NCBI GenBank assembly: GCA_009377445.1
Contig: WHUA01000004.1
Coordinates: 85,273 to 149,272, forward strand
Source of the DNA: Alphaproteobacteria bacterium
Lineage (GTDB): Bacteria > Pseudomonadota > Alphaproteobacteria > UBA8366
Reading direction: 5' to 3'
Length of the DNA: 64,000 bases
Within the stretch, counting starts at the first letter, position 1, and each line of letters opens with the position of its first letter. A program made the position numbers and the translations under genes. The notes beneath the pieces are model-generated. The model saw only the letters and a list, made by a program, of their open reading frames with translations. It was not told the DNA's origin and ran no database searches. Below are positions 6,185 through 40,196 of the stretch, in pieces.

Positions 6185-6736
6185 TCACGCCGCGAGCGTC
6201 ACGCCGCCGACCTGGCGGTTGCACGGACAGAGCTCGTCCGTCTGCAGCGCGTCGAGCACGCGAAGGACCTCGCGCGGGTTGCGGCCGACATTGAGGTTGT
6301 TGACCGACACATGCTGGATCACGTTGTGCGGGTCGACGATGAAGGTCGCGCGCAGCGCCACGCCGTCCGGCGAGCGGACGCCGAGACCGTCGACCAGCGA
6401 TCCGTTCGTATCTGCGAAGGACCACTGGCTGAGCTTGCTCAGGTCGGGATGGTCGCGCCGCCACGCGAGCTTGCAGAACTCGTTGTCGGTGCTGCCGCCC
6501 ATGACGATGCAGTCGCGATCGGCGAAGTCCTCCTCCAACGCGGCGAACTCGACGATTTCGGTCGGGCAGACGAAGGTGTAGTCCTTCGGATAGAAGAAGA
6601 TGACCTTCCATTTGCCCGGAAAGCTGTCGGGCGTGACCGTCTCGAATGCGGTCTGGCCGTTTTCTTCATGATTGTTGAAGCCGGGACGCACGCCGGTCAC
6701 GGAAAATTCGGGAAGGGTATCGCCTACGCAAAGCAT
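6185..6736 (-). CDS. ahpC: Peroxiredoxin AhpC (AhpC/TSA family)
   Basis: Carries the peroxidatic Cys motif [14 protein letters not shown] and a resolving Cys near the C terminus (ELCPCN). Divergent from oxyR. Confidence 0.9.
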
Positions 6737-6790
6737 TGAAGTCTCCTGGTCTGAGGGTTAGAGCGCGAGATGCTGTTGACCTGAGACAAC

Positions 6791-6830
6791 ATAGGCATAA
6801 ATTAGAATGCATCTAATTGTTAATAACGTT
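6791..6830. promoter_or_regulatory. Candidate OxyR/LysR operator in the ahpC-oxyR divergent intergenic region
   Basis: The sequence ATAG-N7-TTAG-N7-CTAA-N7-TAAC is spaced like the OxyR tetranucleotide consensus. It contains a perfect 7-bp inverted repeat AATTAGA-N5-TCTAATT at 6800..6818. Confidence 0.45.
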
Positions 6831-6853
6831 AACTGCCATCGGTCGAAACGATA

Positions 6854-7894
6854 ATGAGCCACGCAGCCCAGCCGCAGCCCGACCGCCAGATTCCGGCTTT
6901 GCCGACGCTGCGCCAGCTCCAATACCTGATCGCGCTAGCCAAATACCGCTCCTTCAGCCGTGCCGCGGCCGCCTGCTGCGTCACCCAGTCGACGCTCAGC
7001 GGCGCCATAAAGGAGCTCGAATCGACGCTGGGCGCCCGCCTTGTCGACCGCGACAACCGAAGCGTGATCGTCACCGGCGCCGGGGAGGACGCCCTCGCCC
7101 GCGCGCGGCGGATCGTCGCCGACGCGGAAGCGCTGCTCGACTGGGCGCGTCGCGGTTCCGGGCCGCTTTCCGGGACGCTGCGGCTCGGGATCATCCCGAC
7201 CATCGCACCCTTCTTGCTGCCCCGCGCGCTGCCGCGGCTCAAGGGGGCCTTCCCCGACCTCGTTTTGCGGCTGCGCGAGGAAACCACCGCAAAGCTGCTC
7301 GATTCCCTTCGGGCGGGCGAGCTAGATCTCGTCCTGATGGCCTTTCCCTATGACGCGCCGGGGCTCGAAACGGCGATCGTCGCGGAGGATCCGCTCATGC
7401 TGACCGAGCCGGGCACGGCGGCGGATGCGAAGCCGCGCGCCGGCATGGACGACCTGGCCGGGCGCCCGCTGCTGCTGCTGGAGGACGGCCATTGCCTGCG
7501 CGATCACGCGCTGGCCGCCTGCTCGCTCCCGAGCGCCCGGGTGGACGAGTTCGGCGCGACGAGCCTGTTCACCCTGGCGCGCATGGTGGAGGCGGGCTAC
7601 GGCGTCACGCTGCTGCCGAAGCTCGCCGTCGACGCCGGCCTTTGCGACAGCGCGAAGGTCACCGTCCGGCCCCTGAATTCGGCGGCGCCTGCGCGCCGGA
7701 TCGGCCTCGCCTGGCGCCGCAACGCGAGCCGCGCGGAGGAATACAGGCTATTGCTCGATTTCCTCAAGGATTCGGGGCTGTTCGGAACACCGGCCGTCCT
7801 CCCTCACCGGTCGCCGCCGAGCCAGCCTTTCCGCCAGAACATGACAAGCATGCCGGCCGCAACCAGCGCCATCAAAAGCAGCGCGAAGGGATAG
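6854..7894 (+). CDS. oxyR: LysR-family peroxide-sensing regulator OxyR
   Basis: The N-terminal HTH is LRQLQYLIALAKYRSFSRAAAACCVTQSTLSGAIKELE. LLLLEDGHCLRDHALAAC aligns with the E. coli OxyR redox Cys199/Cys208 segment. The 3' end runs 91 nt into the convergent corA. Confidence 0.88.
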   Translation: MSHAAQPQPDRQIPALPTLRQLQYLIALAKYRSFSRAAAACCVTQSTLSGAIKELESTLGARLVDRDNRSVIVTGAGEDALARARRIVADAEALLDWARRGSGPLSGTLRLGIIPTIAPFLLPRALPRLKGAFPDLVLRLREETTAKLLDSLRAGELDLVLMAFPYDAPGLETAIVAEDPLMLTEPGTAADAKPRAGMDDLAGRPLLLLEDGHCLRDHALAACSLPSARVDEFGATSLFTLARMVEAGYGVTLLPKLAVDAGLCDSAKVTVRPLNSAAPARRIGLAWRRNASRAEEYRLLLDFLKDSGLFGTPAVLPHRSPPSQPFRQNMTSMPAATSAIKSSAKG

Positions 7895-32082: not shown

Positions 32083-32337
32083 GGTGTCGCGGCCGAACGT
32101 AGCGGCACGGCTGATGGCATCAAGGGATCCCGGCGGCGGGCATCGGCCGGCCGCGCTTTCGTGGAAGGCGGACGAACCTAGCGCATAACAGAACCGTCAT
32201 AAAGGATCGAGTGCATCGCATCGGCTATCCGGTCGCCCCTCCCATTCACCCGATTTTGGCGCTCGATCCGGGATTATGCCAGAATTCCAGGGGGCACGGT
32301 ATTCGTGGCCCCCTCGCTGAGCGCAAGGGATTTGAAC

Positions 32338-33441
32338 ATGGCGAAAGATGGCGTCGTCCTGCTGGGCGTCGGCGACGTAGGGCCTATTCACGAGCCCATG
32401 GACGGCTACGGCGCGCTTGCCCGCGCCACGCTGGCCGGCGGCGACATCCGCTTCGGCCAGTGCGAGCGTGTCTATTCCGAGCGCGGCAGCCTGCAAATCC
32501 ATTCCGGCGGCGGCCACAGCCGGTGCAAGCCGCAAATGGCCTCGATCTTCGGCGACTGCGGCTTCGACGTGGTGTCGGTGGCAAGCAACCATGCGATGGA
32601 TTGGGGCGGCGACGCCCTGATCGACACCATCGCGCTGCTGCGCGGCAAGGGCATCGCGACGGTCGGCGGCGGGCGCAACCTGGAGGAAGCGAGGCAACCC
32701 GCCATCCTCGAGCGCGATGGGGTCAAGGTCGCCTTCCTCGCCTATTGCTCGATCCTGCGCGAAGGCTACGCCGCCGGGCACAAGAAGACAGGCGTCGCGC
32801 CGCTGCGGGCGCACACCTATTACCGCTCATTCGACTACCAGGCCGGCGTGCCGCCGATGGTCGTGACCATGCCTTACGAGGAAGACCTGGAGGCGATGGC
32901 GCAGGACATCGCCCAGGCGAAGAGACAGGCGAACATCGTCGTCGTCTCGCTGCACTGGGGCATACATTTCATCCCGCGCATGATCGCGGACTACCAGCCG
33001 ATCGCCGCCAAGGCTGCCTTCGCGGCCGGCGCCGACCTGATCCTCGGCCATCACGCGCATGTGCCGAAGGCGATCGGCGTGTATGACGGCAAGGTCTGCC
33101 TCTACAGCCTCAGCAACTTCATCATGTCGGGAACCGAGAAGGCGCCGGATGCTGCCAGGGCGTTCGAGCGCGAGTACAGCGTCGAGCTCGACCCGGATTA
33201 TCCCCGCCTCCCCTACGGCTCCGACGCCAAGCGCAGCCTGATCGCCAAGGCGGTGCTGGGACGCGGCGGCGTCAAGCGGGCCTCCTTCCTGCCGGTGCTG
33301 ATCGACCCGCAACTCCGCCCCGAAGTGCTGAAGGGCGGCGACCCGCGTTTCCAGGACGCCGTCGATTTCATGGAATGGGTGTCGGAGGATTTCCCGCACC
33401 GCTTCACGGTCGACGGAGACGAGGTCGTGATCGGCGCCTGA
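32338..33441 (+). CDS. CapA-family (PGA_cap) metallophosphatase-like protein
   Basis: FDVVSVASNHAMDWG, VVVSLHWGIH and LILGHHAHVPK are the CapA/poly-gamma-glutamate capsule family motifs. ATG 32338. Confidence 0.8.
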   Translation: MAKDGVVLLGVGDVGPIHEPMDGYGALARATLAGGDIRFGQCERVYSERGSLQIHSGGGHSRCKPQMASIFGDCGFDVVSVASNHAMDWGGDALIDTIALLRGKGIATVGGGRNLEEARQPAILERDGVKVAFLAYCSILREGYAAGHKKTGVAPLRAHTYYRSFDYQAGVPPMVVTMPYEEDLEAMAQDIAQAKRQANIVVVSLHWGIHFIPRMIADYQPIAAKAAFAAGADLILGHHAHVPKAIGVYDGKVCLYSLSNFIMSGTEKAPDAARAFEREYSVELDPDYPRLPYGSDAKRSLIAKAVLGRGGVKRASFLPVLIDPQLRPEVLKGGDPRFQDAVDFMEWVSEDFPHRFTVDGDEVVIGA

Positions 33442-33447
33442 CCCGCC

Positions 33448-33846
33448 TCAGCGGCCGCAGCCAACGACCGCAATCGCCTCGACCTCGACCAGGAAGTCGC
33501 TCCGCACCAGGGTGGGCGACGCCACGGTCGCGCTCGCCATCTGCCCTTTGGGGAAGACCTCCGCGCGCACCGCGTTGTATTCGCCATACTTGCCCATGTC
33601 GGTGAGGTAGGCGGTGATCTTCGTGACGTCGTCCATCGTCGCGTCGGCGACGGCGAGCACCGCCTCGATGTTCGCGAATACCTGCCGCGTCTGCCGGGTC
33701 ATGTCGCCGGGGCCGACCAGCTTGCCGTCCGGATCCTGCGCCACCTGCCCGGCGACATAAATCGTGTCGCCAACCTGCGTCCCCTGCGCGAAGCCCGGAT
33801 TTTTCGCCCGCGGCCAGCCGGGATTGAGCACGATCTTCTTCGCCAT
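33448..33846 (-). CDS. RidA/YjgF family reactive-intermediate deaminase
   Basis: 132 aa. GDTIYVAGQVAQDP, QTRQVFANIEAVL and LVEVEAIAV fit the RidA fold. Confidence 0.85.
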   Translation of the reverse strand: MAKKIVLNPGWPRAKNPGFAQGTQVGDTIYVAGQVAQDPDGKLVGPGDMTRQTRQVFANIEAVLAVADATMDDVTKITAYLTDMGKYGEYNAVRAEVFPKGQMASATVASPTLVRSDFLVEVEAIAVVGCGR

Positions 33847-33935
33847 CGCCGTCTCCCTATGAATGCATTCGTTTGACAGCGAGCCTAACGCATTGTCTGC
33901 TCTCGGACGAGGCTTCCTCCACCGGACTGCATTCC

Positions 33936-35303
33936 ATGCCCAAGCCGCTGACCTTCGACCCGACGGGCAATACCCTGCCCTGCTTTGCGGACGCCGTGGG
34001 CCGCATGCGCGACGGCAGCGAGACGCCGCGCGAATTCCTCGAACGCTGTCTCGAGCGCATCGCGGCGTATGAGCCCGAGATCCGCGCCTTCGTCTGGTTC
34101 GACCCGGCCGGCCCGCGCGCCGCCGCCGACGCGGCCACCCAGCGCTATCGTCAGGGACGCCCGATGTCGCCGGTCGACGGCTGCCCCGTGGCGATCAAGG
34201 ACATCATCGAGACGGCCGACATGCCGACCCAGATGAACAGCCCGATCTTCAAGGACTGGTGCTCAGGCCGCGACGCCGCCAGCGTCCATGCGCTGCGCGA
34301 GAACGGGGCCGTGATCCTGGGCAAGACGGTGACCACCGAGTTCGCCATGGCCGCGGCGGGCCCGACCCGCAACCCGTTCGACCACGGTCGCACCCCGGGC
34401 GGATCGTCGAGCGGCTCGGCCGCCGCCGTCGCGGCCGGCATGACGCCCGTCGCCCTCGGCACCCAGACCGCGGGCTCGATCGTGCGCCCCGCCGCCTACT
34501 GCGGCGTCTACGGCTTCAAGCCGAGCCATGCCGCGCTCAACATCGGCGGCATCCATCCGCTGTCCGCCAGCCACGACACGCTGGGCACGATCGCGGGAAG
34601 CCTCGCCGACGCCTGGCTCGTCGCCCGCCACATCTCGGCCGTGGCCGGCGGCACGCCGCCCCATCCCGGCCTGCAGGGCCCGCAGGATTTGCCGCCCGCG
34701 CGCGCCCCTGCCCGGCTGATCCGGCTGGAGACCGACGCCTGGAGCGAAACCGACGACGCGACGCGGAGCGCCTTCGAGGCGGCGATCGGCAAGCTCGCGA
34801 AAAACGGCGCGAAAATCCTCGATCGCCGGAACACGCCTGAAGTCGAGAAGCTGGAAACGATGCTGAAGGGCGTGGCCGAGACCGCCCGCATCGTCTCCAC
34901 CTTCGAGCGCCGCTGGCCATTCCTCGAATACGCCAAGCGCCATCCCGGCAAGCTCAGCAAGTCCGCCGAGGAACGGGTCGAAGCGTCCCGCCGCATCGAC
35001 ACCGCGCAATTCACCGGCGCGCTCGAAAAGCAGGAGGCCATCAGGCGGCAGATCGCCGGCATGACGGGCCGGGCCGACGGGTTCGTGACGCTCACGGCGT
35101 CGGGGCCGGCGCCGATCGGGCTGGAGCATACCGGCAGCCGGGGCTTTCAGGTATTCTGGACCCTTACCGCGGCGCCCTGCTTCACGCTCCCGCGACTCGC
35201 GGTGTCCGGCCTGCCCATCGGCCTGCAAGTGCTGGGCTACCGCGACCGGGACGCCGACCTCGCCGGGCTGGCGCGTTGGGTGGACACGGTAACGCGCCAT
35301 TAA
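33936..35303 (+). CDS. Amidase (amidase-signature family)
   Basis: Has the AS signature GGSSSGSAAAVAAGM, with upstream VAIKDIIETADMPT (catalytic Lys region). ATG 33936. Confidence 0.85.
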   Translation: MPKPLTFDPTGNTLPCFADAVGRMRDGSETPREFLERCLERIAAYEPEIRAFVWFDPAGPRAAADAATQRYRQGRPMSPVDGCPVAIKDIIETADMPTQMNSPIFKDWCSGRDAASVHALRENGAVILGKTVTTEFAMAAAGPTRNPFDHGRTPGGSSSGSAAAVAAGMTPVALGTQTAGSIVRPAAYCGVYGFKPSHAALNIGGIHPLSASHDTLGTIAGSLADAWLVARHISAVAGGTPPHPGLQGPQDLPPARAPARLIRLETDAWSETDDATRSAFEAAIGKLAKNGAKILDRRNTPEVEKLETMLKGVAETARIVSTFERRWPFLEYAKRHPGKLSKSAEERVEASRRIDTAQFTGALEKQEAIRRQIAGMTGRADGFVTLTASGPAPIGLEHTGSRGFQVFWTLTAAPCFTLPRLAVSGLPIGLQVLGYRDRDADLAGLARWVDTVTRH

Positions 35304-35446
35304 CCAAACTGCGCTATATGGGTGGAATATGAAGCGCTTGCCCCGAACGCGCGCGCCGTGGCGGTTTTCGGGATCTCGACCCTTCGCGGCATCCGGTTGC
35401 CCGCCTCCATCAATCGCGTTAATCAGATACGGGCATCCCGCCCAAC

Positions 35447-35545
35447 ATGACCAGGACCGATGAGTCCAAGGTGTCGGAGCTTGCTTCGTTGACCGGTAGC
35501 CTCGTCAACGCCGTCGCAGTCGAACCGGCCGTCCCGCCATCATGA
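35447..35545 (+). CDS. Candidate 32-aa small ORF (possible precursor/leader peptide), not in the ORF track
   Basis: Encodes MTRTDESKVSELASLTGSLVNAVAVEPAVPPS. Its TGA overlaps the ATG of the downstream GNAT-peptidase gene (ATGA). By my count 24 of 32 third positions are G/C. No clear SD. ELASLTGS resembles the ELxxIxGG double-glycine leader. Confidence 0.25.
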   Translation: MTRTDESKVSELASLTGSLVNAVAVEPAVPPS

Positions 35546-36651
35546 TCCGAGACGCCGAGCTGTCAGACGTTCCGGCGCTGGTGGAGCTCGAAGAACGCTG
35601 TTTCGAGACCGATCTCCTGTCGCCGCGGAGCTTCCGGCACTTCCTGATCCGTGGAAACGCCGATGTTTTCCTCGATGAGGAGGACGGCGTGCTGCGCGGG
35701 TATTGCATCGTGCTGTATCACCGCAACACCTCGCTCGCGCGGCTCTATTCCATGGCGGTAGCGTCGAAATACCGCAAGCAAGGCATCGCCGGCGCGCTCC
35801 TTCTCTATGCCGAACAGCGCGCTCTCGCCGAGGGTGCGACGCGCATGCGCCTCGAGGTCAATCAGGCCAACAAGGCGGCGCAGCGGCTGTACCGCAGTCT
35901 CGGCTACGACAAGTTCGCCGTCGTTCTCGATTACTACGAGGACCATGCGAACGCCCTGCGGATGGAAAAGGACCTGGCGCCCCATCTGGCGCCGGACCCC
36001 GAGCACGCGCCCTACTACCGGCAGACGCTGGATTTCACCTGCGGGCCCGCCTGCCTGCTGATGGCGATGAAGGCGCACGATCCCGAAATGAAGGCCGACC
36101 GGTCCCTGGAAATCCAGCTTTGGCGCGAGTCGACGACCGTGTTCATGACATCCGGGCTTGGCGGATGCGGCGCGCTGGGGCTGGCGCTGGCGGCTATGCG
36201 CCGCGGCTTCGAGATCGAGGTATCGGTGAGCAACGAAACCGAGATTTTCGTCAATTCCGTCCGTAGCGAGGAGAAGAAGGAGGTCATCCGGCTCGTCGAA
36301 CAGCAGTTCGTGCGGGAGCTCGCCCAGGCCGGCGTCCTGATTCGACGCCGCCCGTTGACGGCAAAGGACATCAAGGAGCGCCTGAAGCGGGACGGCATTC
36401 CGGTCGCCTTGATCAGTTCCTACCGGCTGACCGGCGAAAAGGTGCCGCACTGGATCAAGATCACCTCGTTCGACGACCGCTTCATCTACATCAACGATCC
36501 CTTCGTCGATCCCGAAGAAGACAGAACCGAGACGGACTGCATCGGCATTCCGATCGTGCCGCAGGAGCTCGACCGCATGATGCGCCTCGGCCGCCGCAAA
36601 CATTTCGCATCCCTCATTGTTTATCCGAAGAGAAAGGACGCTACCCTTTAA
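35542..36651 (+). CDS. GNAT N-acetyltransferase (RimI-like) fused to a C39-like cysteine peptidase domain
   Basis: The N-terminal domain has the GNAT motif A, YRKQGIAGALLLYAEQRA. The C-terminal domain has QTLDFTCGPACLLMAM (catalytic Cys), VPHWIKITSFD (His) and YINDP. Confidence 0.8.
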   Translation: MIRDAELSDVPALVELEERCFETDLLSPRSFRHFLIRGNADVFLDEEDGVLRGYCIVLYHRNTSLARLYSMAVASKYRKQGIAGALLLYAEQRALAEGATRMRLEVNQANKAAQRLYRSLGYDKFAVVLDYYEDHANALRMEKDLAPHLAPDPEHAPYYRQTLDFTCGPACLLMAMKAHDPEMKADRSLEIQLWRESTTVFMTSGLGGCGALGLALAAMRRGFEIEVSVSNETEIFVNSVRSEEKKEVIRLVEQQFVRELAQAGVLIRRRPLTAKDIKERLKRDGIPVALISSYRLTGEKVPHWIKITSFDDRFIYINDPFVDPEEDRTETDCIGIPIVPQELDRMMRLGRRKHFASLIVYPKRKDATL

Positions 36652-38126
36652 TGTCGCGCTATACGATCGTCGTGGACCGCCTCTCGGACTGGAAAGGCTC
36701 GGAGGAAGGTCTCAAGTTGATGGCCGTCGACGAGTTCCTCACGAGCGGCGCCGCCCTTCCCCGTGGCGGCCGCGTGGTGAACCTTTGCCGGCGGTACGGT
36801 TACCTCAGCGCCGGCTACTACTGTTCGCTGCTTGCCGAGGCGCGCGGCCAGATCCCGATGCCGACCGTCGCCGACGTTCTCAGCCTGTCGCGCAAGTCGC
36901 TGTATACACACGACGTGCCGGAGCTGGACGATATCCTGCGCCGGACGATCCGGCGTCTCACCTTGCCGCCCGACAAGGCCTTCACGATCATCGTCCTCTT
37001 CGGCCAGGCGGACGACGGGCGGTTCAAGCGGCTCGCGTCGCAGTGCTTCGACATATTCCGTTATCCGATCGTCAGGCTGCAGATCGAGAAGAAGAGCCAA
37101 TGGCGCATCACCGAAATCGTGCCGATGGGCCTGCATCAGCTTCCCGAGGAGCTGAGCGGATGGTTCCAGACGGCGCTGCGCGCCTACACCCGCACGCGCA
37201 AGGCGCTGAGCGGCGGCCGGCCGCCCAGCCTTTACAACCTGGCGGTCCTGTACGAACCGGGCGAAGCGATGCCGCCTTCCGACAAGGCCGCGCTCGACCG
37301 GTTCCTCCGCATCGGCCAGGCGCTCCGCATCGACGTCGAGCTGATCACCAGCAAGGACTACCGGCGGATACCGGAGTTCGATGCGCTGTTCATCCGCACC
37401 ACGACCGCGATCGACCACTACACCTACCAGTTCGCGCGCAAGGCGGAGCAGGAAGGCCTCGCCGTGATCGACGACCCGACGTCGATCCTGCGCTGCACGA
37501 ACAAAGTGTTCCTGCACGAGTTGTTGATCCGCCACGGCATCCCAACCCCGCGCAGCGAGGCGATCAACCGGCTCGACTTCAACGACGAGATGCTGCCGCT
37601 GCTGGAACACCGGCTGGGCTATCCGATCGTGCTCAAGATTCCGGACGGCTCTTTCTCGCGCGGCATCCGCAAGGCGGAGAATCGCCAGCAACTGATCGAA
37701 TACGGCACGGAGCTTCTCAAGCATTCGCGCCTGATCCTGGCGCAGGAATTCATCTACACGCAGTTCGACTGGCGCGTCGGCGTCCTGAACGGCAAGCCTT
37801 TGTATGTCTGCCAATACGAGATGTCGCACAAGCACTGGCAGATCGTGAAGCACCGGTCGGACGGCAGCTTCCAGGAAGGCGGGTACAAGACGTTCACCAT
37901 CGAAGAGGCCCCGAAGGCGCTGGTCGAAACCGCGACACGCGCGGCGGCGCTGATGGGCAACGGCCTCTACGGCGTGGACATCAAGCAGACGGACAAGGGA
38001 TTCCTCGTCATCGAGGTCAACGACAACCCGAACATCGAGCACGGCGTGGAGGACAAGATACTGCAGGACAAGCTGTACATCGCGATCCTGCAGGATTTCA
38101 TCCGGCGCATCGACACGGCGACCTGA
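36651..38126 (+). CDS. RimK-family ATP-grasp ligase with long N-terminal (RLAN-type) domain
   Basis: The start overlaps the upstream stop (TAATG). The C-terminal ATP-grasp region has GYPIVLKIPDGSFSRGI, LAQEFIYTQFDWRVGVL and GVDIKQTDKGFLVIEVNDNP. The ~200-aa N-terminal extension is as in RimK-like proteins with the RLAN domain. Confidence 0.85.
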   Translation: MSRYTIVVDRLSDWKGSEEGLKLMAVDEFLTSGAALPRGGRVVNLCRRYGYLSAGYYCSLLAEARGQIPMPTVADVLSLSRKSLYTHDVPELDDILRRTIRRLTLPPDKAFTIIVLFGQADDGRFKRLASQCFDIFRYPIVRLQIEKKSQWRITEIVPMGLHQLPEELSGWFQTALRAYTRTRKALSGGRPPSLYNLAVLYEPGEAMPPSDKAALDRFLRIGQALRIDVELITSKDYRRIPEFDALFIRTTTAIDHYTYQFARKAEQEGLAVIDDPTSILRCTNKVFLHELLIRHGIPTPRSEAINRLDFNDEMLPLLEHRLGYPIVLKIPDGSFSRGIRKAENRQQLIEYGTELLKHSRLILAQEFIYTQFDWRVGVLNGKPLYVCQYEMSHKHWQIVKHRSDGSFQEGGYKTFTIEEAPKALVETATRAAALMGNGLYGVDIKQTDKGFLVIEVNDNPNIEHGVEDKILQDKLYIAILQDFIRRIDTAT

Positions 38127-38148: not shown

Positions 38149-39249
38149 CTACGGCTCTCCGCGCAGCCCGTCCTCGGCCTGTCCCAGGACCTCCCGGCCA
38201 CGCGCCAGGACCATGCTTCGCCACTCGGCCGTGTCGGGAAAGAAGTGGCGCTTGAGCGTCGCTTTGGCGGCCTGCGTCTCCGGCGATCCCCAATCCGGCG
38301 CGCCGTCGCGGTGCAGGATGTGGTCGAGGCGAAGCTGGCGGAACATGTCTTCGACCGGATAGGTGCCGAACTCGAGAGTCACGAAAGTGACGGCCGGCCC
38401 GAGCGCCCGCTGCCACCCGTAATCGAGCAGCCCGTATTTCGCCACCGAGGTGGACGTGCCGAGCGCGGGCTCCGTCATCGATGCGCCGTACCAGCGCCGG
38501 CCGCGTAGAGTCTCCGCGCTTCCGGCGGGATGGTCGCAGATGATCTCGCCGTAGCCGAAGGGCCCCAGCCCGGTATGGATATCGACCACCGCGACGACCC
38601 GGCGGCGGACCAGGCCGAAGTCCGTCAGGACCGCCTCGACCGCCCGCCGGGACCATGCCGGCGCTGCGCCGCCGTAGAACAGGCCGGCAGGCTGCGTGTA
38701 CTGGCCCGAGGAGACCGCCATCTCCAGCGCCCGCTGCCCGTGCCGGACGCGGTAGGCCTCGATAACCGCTTCCGCTGCCGCGAGAGCGGACGGATCTAAG
38801 CTCGCGGGCAGCAGGGCCGCGTGCAGCTCGTCATAGCCGGGATTGGCCGGCAGCGGCGCCGCGAAATCGACGAAATTGCGGTTCAGGTCGACCCCGTCCT
38901 CGTTCACCCGGCGGAGCCATGCGAACCCATGCGGATTGAGCGCGTGGAGATGCAGCACGGCGAGATCGCCGCCCTGCAGCGAACGCCCTCTTCGGGCGAT
39001 CCAATCGAGCTGCACGGCCGAGCCGCAAAAGCCCTCCGCCCCGTGCGTCGCGGAGATCGTGACGAGCGCCCGGGAAGCATCCTGCGGCCCGAACCAGGCC
39101 GCATCCATCGCGAGCGCCTCGCCCTCCGGGCCGCGCCGGGGGTTCTCGTAACTCTTCACGGGGATGCCCGCCGCGCCGCATGCCGCCCGGAAGCGATCGC
39201 GCGCCCCGGCGTAGCTGCCGCTGAACGGGGAATCCGGGGTATCCGTCAT
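38149..39249 (-). CDS. DUF2817 family protein (M14 zinc-carboxypeptidase-like fold)
   Basis: 366 aa from ATG 39249. TISATHGAEGFCGS, LHALNPHGFAWLRRVNEDGVDLNRNF and VVDIHTGLGPFG fit the DUF2817/M14-like pattern from memory. Confidence 0.65.
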   Translation of the reverse strand: MTDTPDSPFSGSYAGARDRFRAACGAAGIPVKSYENPRRGPEGEALAMDAAWFGPQDASRALVTISATHGAEGFCGSAVQLDWIARRGRSLQGGDLAVLHLHALNPHGFAWLRRVNEDGVDLNRNFVDFAAPLPANPGYDELHAALLPASLDPSALAAAEAVIEAYRVRHGQRALEMAVSSGQYTQPAGLFYGGAAPAWSRRAVEAVLTDFGLVRRRVVAVVDIHTGLGPFGYGEIICDHPAGSAETLRGRRWYGASMTEPALGTSTSVAKYGLLDYGWQRALGPAVTFVTLEFGTYPVEDMFRQLRLDHILHRDGAPDWGSPETQAAKATLKRHFFPDTAEWRSMVLARGREVLGQAEDGLRGEP

Positions 39250-39299: not shown

Positions 39300-40196
39300 T
39301 CAGGCCGCCCGCACTGCTTCCGGAGCGCGCCCTTTCACGGTCGTCCGCTGCATGCGGCGACGCTGCGGCAACCAGTAGTCGTCGACCGCCAGGTGCTGCG
39401 TCTGGATGTTGTCCCAGATCAGCAAGTCGCCGGCCTGCCACTTATGCCGGTAGACGAAGGCCGGCTTCGTCACATGGGCGCAAAGCTCGGCCAGCAGCGC
39501 CGGACCCTCCCCCTCCGGCAGCCCGAGGATGCTCTCGGTGATGCCGTCGTTGCAGAACAGGATAGGCGCGCCGGTATAGGGATGCGCGATGACGAGCGGG
39601 TGCGTGGCCGGCGGCACCTTGCGCTTCTGCTCCTCGCTCAGCGGCTTCAGGCCCTGGCGGCCCGGCTTGCTTTTCGCGACGATCTTCTCGTAGACCTGCC
39701 GGTAGCTGTGCACGGCCTCGAGGCCCGCCAGCCGCGCCTTGGCCGGCGCCGGTAGCGCGGCATAAGCCATCCGCGCATTGGCGAACATCGTGTCGCCCAG
39801 CGGCCGGCCCTCGCCGTCCTGCGGCACCTCGAGGGCGTGCAGCAGCGAGCAGCGGCTCGGCTCGGCCATGTAGGAAAGGTCGGTGTGCCAGACCCGGCCC
39901 GCTTCCGCCAGACCGAGCGGCTTGCCGCCGGCATCGAGGCAATTGGAGATGCAATAGATCTCGGGAAACCCCTGCAAATTGAAGCTCGACTGCACGTGCA
40001 CCTCAAGCTCGCCGAAGCGCCGGCTGAAATCGATGTGCTGCGGCGGCGCAAACCGCTGGTCGCGAATGCAGACGACCGCGTATTCGTGCAAGGCGTCGAC
40101 GATCCGCCCGAAGATGGCTTCATCCGGCGCGACCGCGAGATCCAGGCCGGTGATTTCCGCGCCGAACGGCCCGGGCAATGGGCGAAGGGTCATCAT
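39300..40196 (-). CDS. TauD/TfdA family Fe(II)/2-oxoglutarate dioxygenase (second copy)
   Basis: Has VWHTDLSY (HxD) and IWDNIQTQHLA. The ATG pair at 40196/40193 follows GAGAGG. Confidence 0.85.
   Translation of the reverse strand: MMTLRPLPGPFGAEITGLDLAVAPDEAIFGRIVDALHEYAVVCIRDQRFAPPQHIDFSRRFGELEVHVQSSFNLQGFPEIYCISNCLDAGGKPLGLAEAGRVWHTDLSYMAEPSRCSLLHALEVPQDGEGRPLGDTMFANARMAYAALPAPAKARLAGLEAVHSYRQVYEKIVAKSKPGRQGLKPLSEEQKRKVPPATHPLVIAHPYTGAPILFCNDGITESILGLPEGEGPALLAELCAHVTKPAFVYRHKWQAGDLLIWDNIQTQHLAVDDYWLPQRRRMQRTTVKGRAPEAVRAA

Follow-up and report, generated by a model that had tools for sequence, protein, structure and literature searches.

The GNAT-DUF3335/RLAN-RimK gene pair of an alphaproteobacterial contig: a probable amide-bond module, not a ribosomal-peptide locus

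This analysis concerns a pair of overlapping genes in a 64,000-nucleotide stretch of DNA from an alphaproteobacterium (lineage UBA8366; assembly GCA_009377445.1, contig WHUA01000004.1, positions 85,273 to 149,272 of the forward strand), referred to here as the window. The first gene encodes a GNAT-type acetyltransferase fused to a papain-like domain, and the second a RimK-family ATP-grasp ligase with an N-terminal RLAN domain. An earlier reading of the sequence alone had seen in a 32-codon open reading frame (ORF) directly upstream a possible precursor gene of a ribosomal-peptide system. We conclude that this ORF arose by chance within a non-coding 5' leader and that the locus is not a ribosomal-peptide system. 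The comparisons described below argue with good confidence that the pair is a module of a ligase and a peptidase-acetyltransferase working without a ribosomal precursor, and whatever its product, the locus is probably a two-gene cytoplasmic module that forms amide bonds non-ribosomally. The three elements in question are as follows.

35447-35545, plus strand: 32-codon ORF, a chance frame within the predicted 5' leader (no coding signature, not conserved)
35542-36651, plus strand: bifunctional GNAT + DUF3335 protein, 369 residues (Pfam and NCBIfam, structure matches, conserved residues)
36651-38126, plus strand: RLAN + RimK-family ATP-grasp ligase, 491 residues (Pfam and NCBIfam, conserved motifs)

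A chance reading frame precedes the operon

The comparison covered 24 loci of species-representative genomes, 11 contigs whose encoded proteins are 80-88% identical, and 80 metagenome loci. Small ORFs were surveyed in 100 non-redundant orthologous loci, where those of 20 codons or more that abut the start of the GNAT gene were counted. The sequence-only reading had described the ORF, the two genes and their junctions correctly: the TGA of the small ORF overlaps the ATG at 35542 (ATGA), and the TAA of the GNAT-DUF3335 gene overlaps the ATG at 36651 (TAATG). The product of the ORF is MTRTDESKVSELASLTGSLVNAVAVEPAVPPS, in which E11, L12, L15, G17 and S18 do occupy, as had been noted, positions -8, -7, -4, -2 and -1 as counted from a presumed GS cleavage site. 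The window (65% G+C) contains 407 ATG-initiated ORFs of at least 32 codons in its six frames, and the motif [EDQ][LIVM]xx[LIVM]xG[GAS] occurs 13 times in its six-frame translation, so that about one ORF carrying such a motif is expected per window by chance. The frequency of the motif is thus compatible with chance.

Comparison with the closest relative, a contig whose proteins are 88% identical (L025), revealed 21 substitutions in the small ORF, distributed 5/9/7 over the first, second and third codon positions. Between the same two genomes the substitutions fell 32/21/129 in the GNAT-DUF3335 gene and 30/12/135 in the ligase gene. The encoded peptide is 62% identical, compared with 88% for the adjacent GNAT-DUF3335 protein. 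Together, the 5/9/7 pattern and the low peptide identity are the signature of non-coding DNA. L025 retains the 32-codon frame, but the leader motif is broken there, EL having become EH and GS having become GC. Among the other relatives, the ATG is replaced in L001 (86%), an indel moves the N-terminal half to another frame in L034 and L036 (86%), a 24-codon GTG frame is all that remains in L037 (84%), and unrelated sequence occupies the position in L031, L033 and L035 (80-82%).

The wider survey gave the same picture. No ORF abutted the GNAT start in 47 of the 100 loci, and those found in the other 53 had no common sequence beyond groups of close relatives, with a double-glycine-type motif in a few unrelated loci only. 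Clustering of 1378 small ORFs, drawn from 700 nt of flanking sequence on each side and from the interval separating the genes, yielded no small-ORF family common to diverse loci; the clusters obtained were fragments of DUF2817 and ArgE genes and groups among near-identical Brucella genomes. Gene callers annotated no gene in the spacer of the related contigs, the ORF had no match in Pfam or NCBIfam, and we saw no Shine-Dalgarno sequence upstream of it or of the GNAT gene. The corresponding DNA in Azospirillum encodes, in frame, about 30 additional N-terminal residues of the GNAT protein and follows a strong Shine-Dalgarno sequence. The ATGA overlap does recur in most loci, and both this recurrence and the end point of the small ORF arise because the GNAT protein begins Met-Ile-Arg, its gene opening with ATG ATC.

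The small ORF is thus very probably not a conserved precursor. Against its dismissal as a chance frame stand its intactness in the 88% relative and its place as the first ATG on the predicted transcript, and it may be translated at the level of the strain.

These results bear directly on the ribosomal-peptide alternative, which holds that a 32-residue precursor has its leader cut by the C39-like domain, leaving a 14-residue core to be N-acetylated and C-terminally glutamylated. In its favour are the existence of the ORF with a partial ELxxLxGS motif at the positions given above, its retention in L025, and the double-glycine peptidase domains of PCAT1, ComA and LahT-like enzymes among the top fold matches of the papain-like domain. 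We nevertheless find it scarcely credible. The ORF has neither a coding signature nor a Shine-Dalgarno sequence, its start or frame is lost in relatives at 84-86% identity, it is absent in all more distant ones, and in the relative that retains it the leader reads EH...GC. No conserved small ORF accompanies the pair in the 100 loci, and no exporter of the peptidase-containing ABC transporter (PCAT) or other ABC type is linked to it. Further, the peptidase domain misses the cut-off of the leader-peptidase family PF03412, and equally good fold matches (PeiR, Alr0975 and CtaG) are enzymes that do not act on leaders. The proposals that the ORF is a double-glycine-leader precursor and that the locus is a ribosomal-peptide system have to be abandoned, there being no conserved precursor, no purifying selection on the ORF and no linked exporter. 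Conservation of the small ORF, in frame, in orthologous loci, the check by which the sequence-only reading had itself offered to be judged, failed across the 100 loci. The idea of combined leader cleavage, acetylation and glutamylation falls at the comparison of orthologues, which spares a costly peptide hunt.

An upstream ORF confined to this lineage, at which termination on the ATGA would re-initiate ribosomes on the GNAT gene whatever the sequence of the peptide, is improbable in our judgement. It would agree with the ORF having the first ATG after a promoter-like block at 35397-35429, with the GNAT start lacking a Shine-Dalgarno sequence, and with a +1-frame ORF ending at the ATGA in 53 of the 100 loci. 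However, the ATG of the ORF also lacks a Shine-Dalgarno sequence and does not lie at the 5' end of the transcript, whose start is predicted; the start is lost in L001 and the frame shifted in L034 although both keep the downstream gene; 47 of the 100 loci have no such ORF; and the Met-Ile N-terminus explains the ATGA.

A papain-fold domain joined to an acetyltransferase

The GNAT-peptidase fusion and the RLAN-RimK architecture that had been read from the sequence were both confirmed by Pfam. In the first protein, Acetyltransf_1 matched residues 12-122 (E=8e-18) and DUF3335 (PF11814, 'Peptidase_C39 like family') residues 157-360 (E=1.7e-80; 269.8 bits against a cut-off of 25), giving a RimI/NAT-like GNAT domain of about residues 1-145 and a papain-fold, cysteine peptidase-like DUF3335 domain of about residues 157-360. 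The GNAT domain carries the acetyl-CoA motif R-x-x-G-x-A. Its best NCBIfam match is rimI, under the equivalog cut-off, and its nearest solved structures by sequence are N-terminal protein acetyltransferases and RimI.

The claim of a C39-type peptidase with Cys, His and Asp in place holds for the residues and not for the family. In an alignment of 18 diverse homologues Q161, C167 and H303 are invariant and D319 nearly so, which gives the arrangement typical of papain-like (clan CA) peptidases: a papain fold bearing, in this sequence, the oxyanion-hole Gln, then Cys, His and Asp/Asn. In contrast, the model of the C39 leader peptidases proper, PF03412, scored 13.0 bits, below its cut-off of 22; PF13529 (C39_2) matched marginally (25.1 against 24). 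By sequence, the peptidase half had no match among solved structures. The AlphaFold model of residues 150-369 (mean predicted local distance difference test score, pLDDT, 89.8) gave papain-fold matches in Foldseek with E-values of about 1e-5 to 1e-4, template-modelling (TM) scores of 0.37-0.55 and about 14% identity. These included C39 domains of the PCAT1/ComA/LahT type, the pseudomurein endoisopeptidase PeiR, the phytochelatin-synthase-like Alr0975, the C39-like structure 3erv, CtaG and staphopain. The domain shares with the leader peptidases PCAT1, ComA and the LahT-type enzymes the papain fold and the Gln/Cys/His/Asp set, and they are among its top matches (E about 1e-5); it differs from them in being only about 14% identical and about 80 residues larger, in having no ABC transporter fused or linked to it, and in having no conserved double-glycine substrate gene nearby. 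Judged by sequence and model, the DUF3335 domain is C39-like at the level of the clan and lies outside the leader-peptidase family, and its activity is a predicted one.

A second invariant cysteine besides the catalytic C167 occurs in the triplet G207-G208-C209 (window positions 36160-36168), within a conserved MTSGxGGC segment; in the AlphaFold model the triplet falls in a low-confidence loop (model residues 54-56).

The fold matches also raise the possibility of a pathway of the closthioamide/butirosin type, in which the ATP-grasp enzyme would load or extend an amino acid and the papain-fold domain would act as an amide-forming transacylase. CtaG is a papain-fold transacylase whose partner is the ATP-grasp enzyme CtaD, and HHpred has assigned it to PF11814/BtrH (PMC7183216), so that the combination of an ATP-grasp enzyme and a PF11814-related papain-fold enzyme is common to both systems, and structures of CtaG (E about 1e-4) and the transpeptidase Alr0975 are among the matches. 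Yet the TM-scores to CtaG are low (0.37-0.41), and the recurrent neighbours of the pair include no peptidyl carrier protein, decarboxylase, thioamide synthetase or exporter; without carrier or tailoring genes, the module is a bare two-gene unit amid genes of housekeeping type. We therefore regard such a pathway as highly improbable. The papain-fold domain may still have a carrier-independent transpeptidase activity, which would be compatible with the function proposed below.

A divergent RimK-family ligase with a conserved RLAN domain

The second protein matched RLAN (PF14401) at residues 28-173 (E=2.6e-38) and the RimK ATP-grasp domain at residues 284-464 (E=1.6e-12), PF08443 scoring 47.9 bits against a cut-off of 21. 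Its best NCBIfam matches were rimK_fam, LysX, S6-Glu ligase, MptN and CofF, all under their equivalog cut-offs. With TIGR00768 it scored 88.5 bits (E=5e-25), under the cut-off of 143.4, and it is therefore a divergent branch of the RimK family. With NF007764, the S6--L-glutamate ligase equivalog, it reached 53 bits against a cut-off of 331, which places it outside RimK proper. The closest solved structures are those of RimK from E. coli and other sources (5zct/4iwx), followed by LysX/ArgX. Since the ATP-grasp motifs KIPDGSxSRG, AQEF, GVDxK and IEVNDNP are kept across 30 homologues, the ligase is predicted to be active.

The most conserved stretch of the protein lies in the RLAN domain: the motif NLCRRYxYLSxGYYCSLLAEARGxxPMPTVxD, with two conserved cysteines (residues 44-75, window positions 36780-36875). 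Modelled alone, the RLAN domain was of mediocre quality (pLDDT 68.8, falling below 50 in the core motif). In a fold search with this model nothing reached significance: the strongest hit stood at E=0.008, and the weak matches were mostly ATP-grasp proteins. As a lead from the model, RLAN may be a degenerate domain derived from ATP-grasp. Its motif may serve as a contact surface for either the ATP-grasp domain or the GNAT-peptidase partner.

The pair and its recurrent neighbours

Wherever the related loci offered enough sequence, in about 95 cases, the two genes lay side by side, their stop and start codons often overlapping or nearly touching. Protein-cluster searches returned thousands of relatives at E <= 1e-10, counts that can include GNAT-only proteins and other RimK relatives. 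The pair is carried by culturable Azospirillum brasilense, Tistrella mobilis, Brucella (Ochrobactrum) species and Mariprofundus, and the products are named by NCBI 'GNAT family N-acetyltransferase/peptidase C39 family protein' and 'RimK family protein'. Elsewhere in the window neither the ligase nor the GNAT protein has a paralogue. In Azospirillum the pair sits on chromids of about 2 Mb, at about 4900-7585 in L116 (A. brasilense NZ_CP059450.1) and also in L012.

The sequence-only reading had stated that the pair was noted in comparative genomics. Iyer, Abhiman, Burroughs and Aravind reportedly defined this GNAT-papain/RLAN-RimK neighbourhood in 2009 by that approach. PMC10318531, with a citation of Iyer et al. 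2009, describes frequent fusion of DUF3335 to GNAT domains. With the same architectures (PF11814, PF14401) and the same pairing, the window locus is an ordinary member of this neighbourhood; the recurrent neighbours described next were counted in the present analysis. The neighbourhood is thus already known, and the window locus is not RimK proper, a C39 leader peptidase, the trio that makes N-acetylglutaminylglutamine amide (NAGGN), or a ribosomal-peptide system. We found no experimental study of the GNAT-DUF3335/RLAN-RimK pair in the literature searched, in agreement with what had been stated.

In the window the ligase gene is followed by a convergent gene for a DUF2817 protein:

38149-39249, minus strand: DUF2817 protein, 366 residues, putative M14/AstE-like zinc hydrolase (Pfam DUF2817 E=3e-111, invariant motifs)

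Starting at the ATG at 39249, this protein has 366 residues, the same length as in L025, and the start at 39441 in the ORF list is probably too far upstream. DUF2817 genes adjoin the pair in about 12 lineages that match the entire family in diversity (median pairwise identity 48%, compared with 51% overall). They occupy one of two places: downstream in convergent orientation, which is the window arrangement, or immediately upstream in the same orientation as the pair. The invariant HGxE, NPxG, DLNRNF, H226 and E294 form a sequence pattern that suggests a zinc hydrolase of the M14/AstE type, and the family presumably belongs to the Pfam clan Peptidase_MH. Other loci have hydrolases of different families beside the pair: a classical Peptidase_M14 gene in five (L057, L064, L071, L086 and L089; upstream, minus strand) and an ArgE-like M20 deacylase in 11 (L006, L051, L052, L055, L070, L076-L079, L097 and L100). 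In L003 a gene directly downstream of the pair (6631-7749, plus strand) matched the M42 equivalog of the NAGGN system (494.6 against 397.75 bits). A scan of the recurrent neighbours in the window and related loci turned up neither an ABC/PCAT exporter nor a carrier protein.

The M42 gene of L003 raised the question of whether the pair replaces Ngg in a full NAGGN trio there. We rejected this, the upstream genes being SpeA and RlmJ and not AsnO. The trio (TIGR03103 + TIGR03104 + TIGR03106) is represented by M42 alone, in this one locus, with no amidotransferase in L003. Moreover, the window GNAT scored 19 bits with the Ngg model TIGR03103, against 569, and is fused to a peptidase, whereas in the NAGGN system the GNAT is fused to the ligase.

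A DUF155 gene lies downstream of the pair in nine loci.

What the module might make

Family membership and gene context suggest the following mechanism. Using ATP, the RLAN-RimK ligase would extend a free carboxylate with L-glutamate, or some similar amino acid, in alpha linkage and so build short acidic chains, while the overlapping stop and start codons would let the partner protein be made in step with it. The papain-fold domain would cut or transfer these glutamyl chains, the RimI/NAT-like GNAT would acetylate the exposed alpha-amino end, and a neighbouring zinc hydrolase would trim or recycle the product, a role that may fall to DUF2817 in the window and to M14, NAGGN-type M42 or ArgE-like M20 enzymes in other genomes. 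The favoured product would be a free metabolite of the N-acetyl-oligo-glutamate type, an analogue of N-acetylaspartylglutamate (NAAG) or NAGGN; as a specific product, N-acetyl-oligo-glutamate is a tentative proposal, which we would not yet back over all others taken together.

Several lines are consistent with this mechanism. The ligase is closest to RimK, LysX, MptN and CofF, all of which act on glutamate. The combination of a GNAT, an ATP-grasp peptide ligase and a metallopeptidase recalls the NAGGN and NAAG systems, with M42 itself present in L003. In mammals NAAG is made by NAT8L and RIMKLA/B, the latter belonging to the RimK family. RimK not only extends RpsF but also makes free poly-alpha-glutamate, with the protease RimB acting against it (PMC11957051); for GNATs that accompany ATP-grasp ligases, a role in capping the product has been proposed (PMC4431377); and papain-fold enzymes related to PF11814 can hydrolyse or transacylate (PMC7183216).

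The chief competitor is reversible protein glutamylation, in which the ligase would add a poly-alpha-glutamate tail to the C-terminus of a protein encoded elsewhere (bS6/RpsF or another), the papain-like domain together with DUF2817 or M14 would remove it, and the GNAT would acetylate the same or a partner protein, making the module a bacterial parallel to RimK/RimB or to the tubulin enzymes TTLL/CCP. The M14 family includes deglutamylases, which the M14-like partner recalls, and the RimK-family ligase, a GNAT whose nearest relatives are N-terminal protein acetyltransferases (RimI among them), and a conserved extra RLAN domain that could dock a target also fit. RimK and RimB acting on RpsF supply a precedent for a ligase paired with a protease (PMC11957051), and the arrangement here, a RimK-family ATP-grasp ligase encoded beside a peptidase that might undo its work, resembles it. 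The window ligase differs from RimK in its extra RLAN domain of about 190 residues, and its partner is a papain-fold/GNAT fusion, accompanied by an M14-like enzyme, where RimB is retropepsin-like; we saw no link to S6. Against protein glutamylation, none of the genomes examined has a candidate target near the pair, an endopeptidase-N-terminal acetyltransferase fusion with a C-terminal ligase would be uneconomical for a single protein target, and NAGGN-type M42 'deblocking' and ArgE-like neighbours suit small N-acetyl peptides better. We consider this explanation rather unlikely, though far from negligible. Our leaning towards a free metabolite over a glutamylated protein is slight and weakly held; it comes from the fusion of an endopeptidase with an N-alpha-acetyltransferase and from the M42, M20 and carboxypeptidase-type partners, which fit a small N-capped peptide.

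Several observations weigh against the free-metabolite proposal. For every member of the family the substrate, the amino acid specificity and the product are inferred. The proposal gives no role to the very conserved RLAN domain, whose core motif is modelled with pLDDT below 50, and the sequence likeness of the GNAT to protein N-terminal acetyltransferases would suit a protein substrate equally well. The kinship of DUF2817 to M14 is faint: its profile matched M14 structures (REP34, MpaA and CPN) weakly, with E-values of 0.05-0.65, and hhalign of DUF2817 with the M14 neighbours gave 14% probability, over the DLNRNF motif only. The hydrolase partners are not universal, the two-gene core standing alone in most loci, and the ArgE and M14 loci are moderately related (median identity 61% and 65%), so that inherited synteny may account for their recurrence.

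Taking the two outcomes together, we hold it evenly balanced whether the pair and its M14-like partner form a widespread pathway either for N-acetyl oligo-alpha-glutamate or for the reversible addition of glutamate to the C-terminus of some protein other than S6. Only RpsF and Legionella SdeA are known to be polyglutamylated among bacterial proteins (PMC11957051), and the product of the module would reveal either a further bacterial target of glutamylation or a new family of N-acetyl acidic peptides. If the proposal is right, a cysteine peptidase and an N-alpha-acetyltransferase acting in tandem on the product of a ligase would be new enzymology, and RLAN would be a new substrate-selecting or regulatory module. 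With the ribosomal-peptide idea set aside, the locus keeps its interest as a widespread, genetically tractable and sharply conserved two-enzyme module.

Leader and flanking genes

The best-conserved part of the spacer upstream of the operon lies about 115-145 nt before the GNAT start and reads TTGCCC-N17-TAATCA-GATA.

35397-35429, plus strand: conserved non-coding block, candidate promoter/operator of the GNAT-C39/RimK operon (conservation in the spacer)

The pattern TTGCC-N18-WAATCAGA occurs once in the window. Twelve of the fetched loci have it, every one of them in the clade at 80-88% identity, and L031 and L033 carry it though the rest of their spacer is unalignable. A strict sigma-70 scan did not call the block as a promoter, the -10 hexamer ending in A. 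The conservation of its sequence makes the block a candidate for a promoter or an operator. A riboswitch or structured leader was considered and rejected, the leader RNA of about 110 nt folding no better than shuffled sequences (z = +0.86), and an Rfam scan of the spacer gave no meaningful match, the lone hit being to a miRNA at E=0.48.

Three genes precede the operon.

32305-33441: PGA_cap (CapA-like)
33448-33846, minus strand: RidA-like gene
33873-35303: amidase

Their order is kept in the clade at 84-88% identity only, and the amidase is missing in the relatives at 80-82%; a major facilitator superfamily (MFS) gene is likewise syntenic in the closest clade only. The presence of a CapA-family gene beside a module of the glutamate-ligase type is curious, but the linkage is not conserved.

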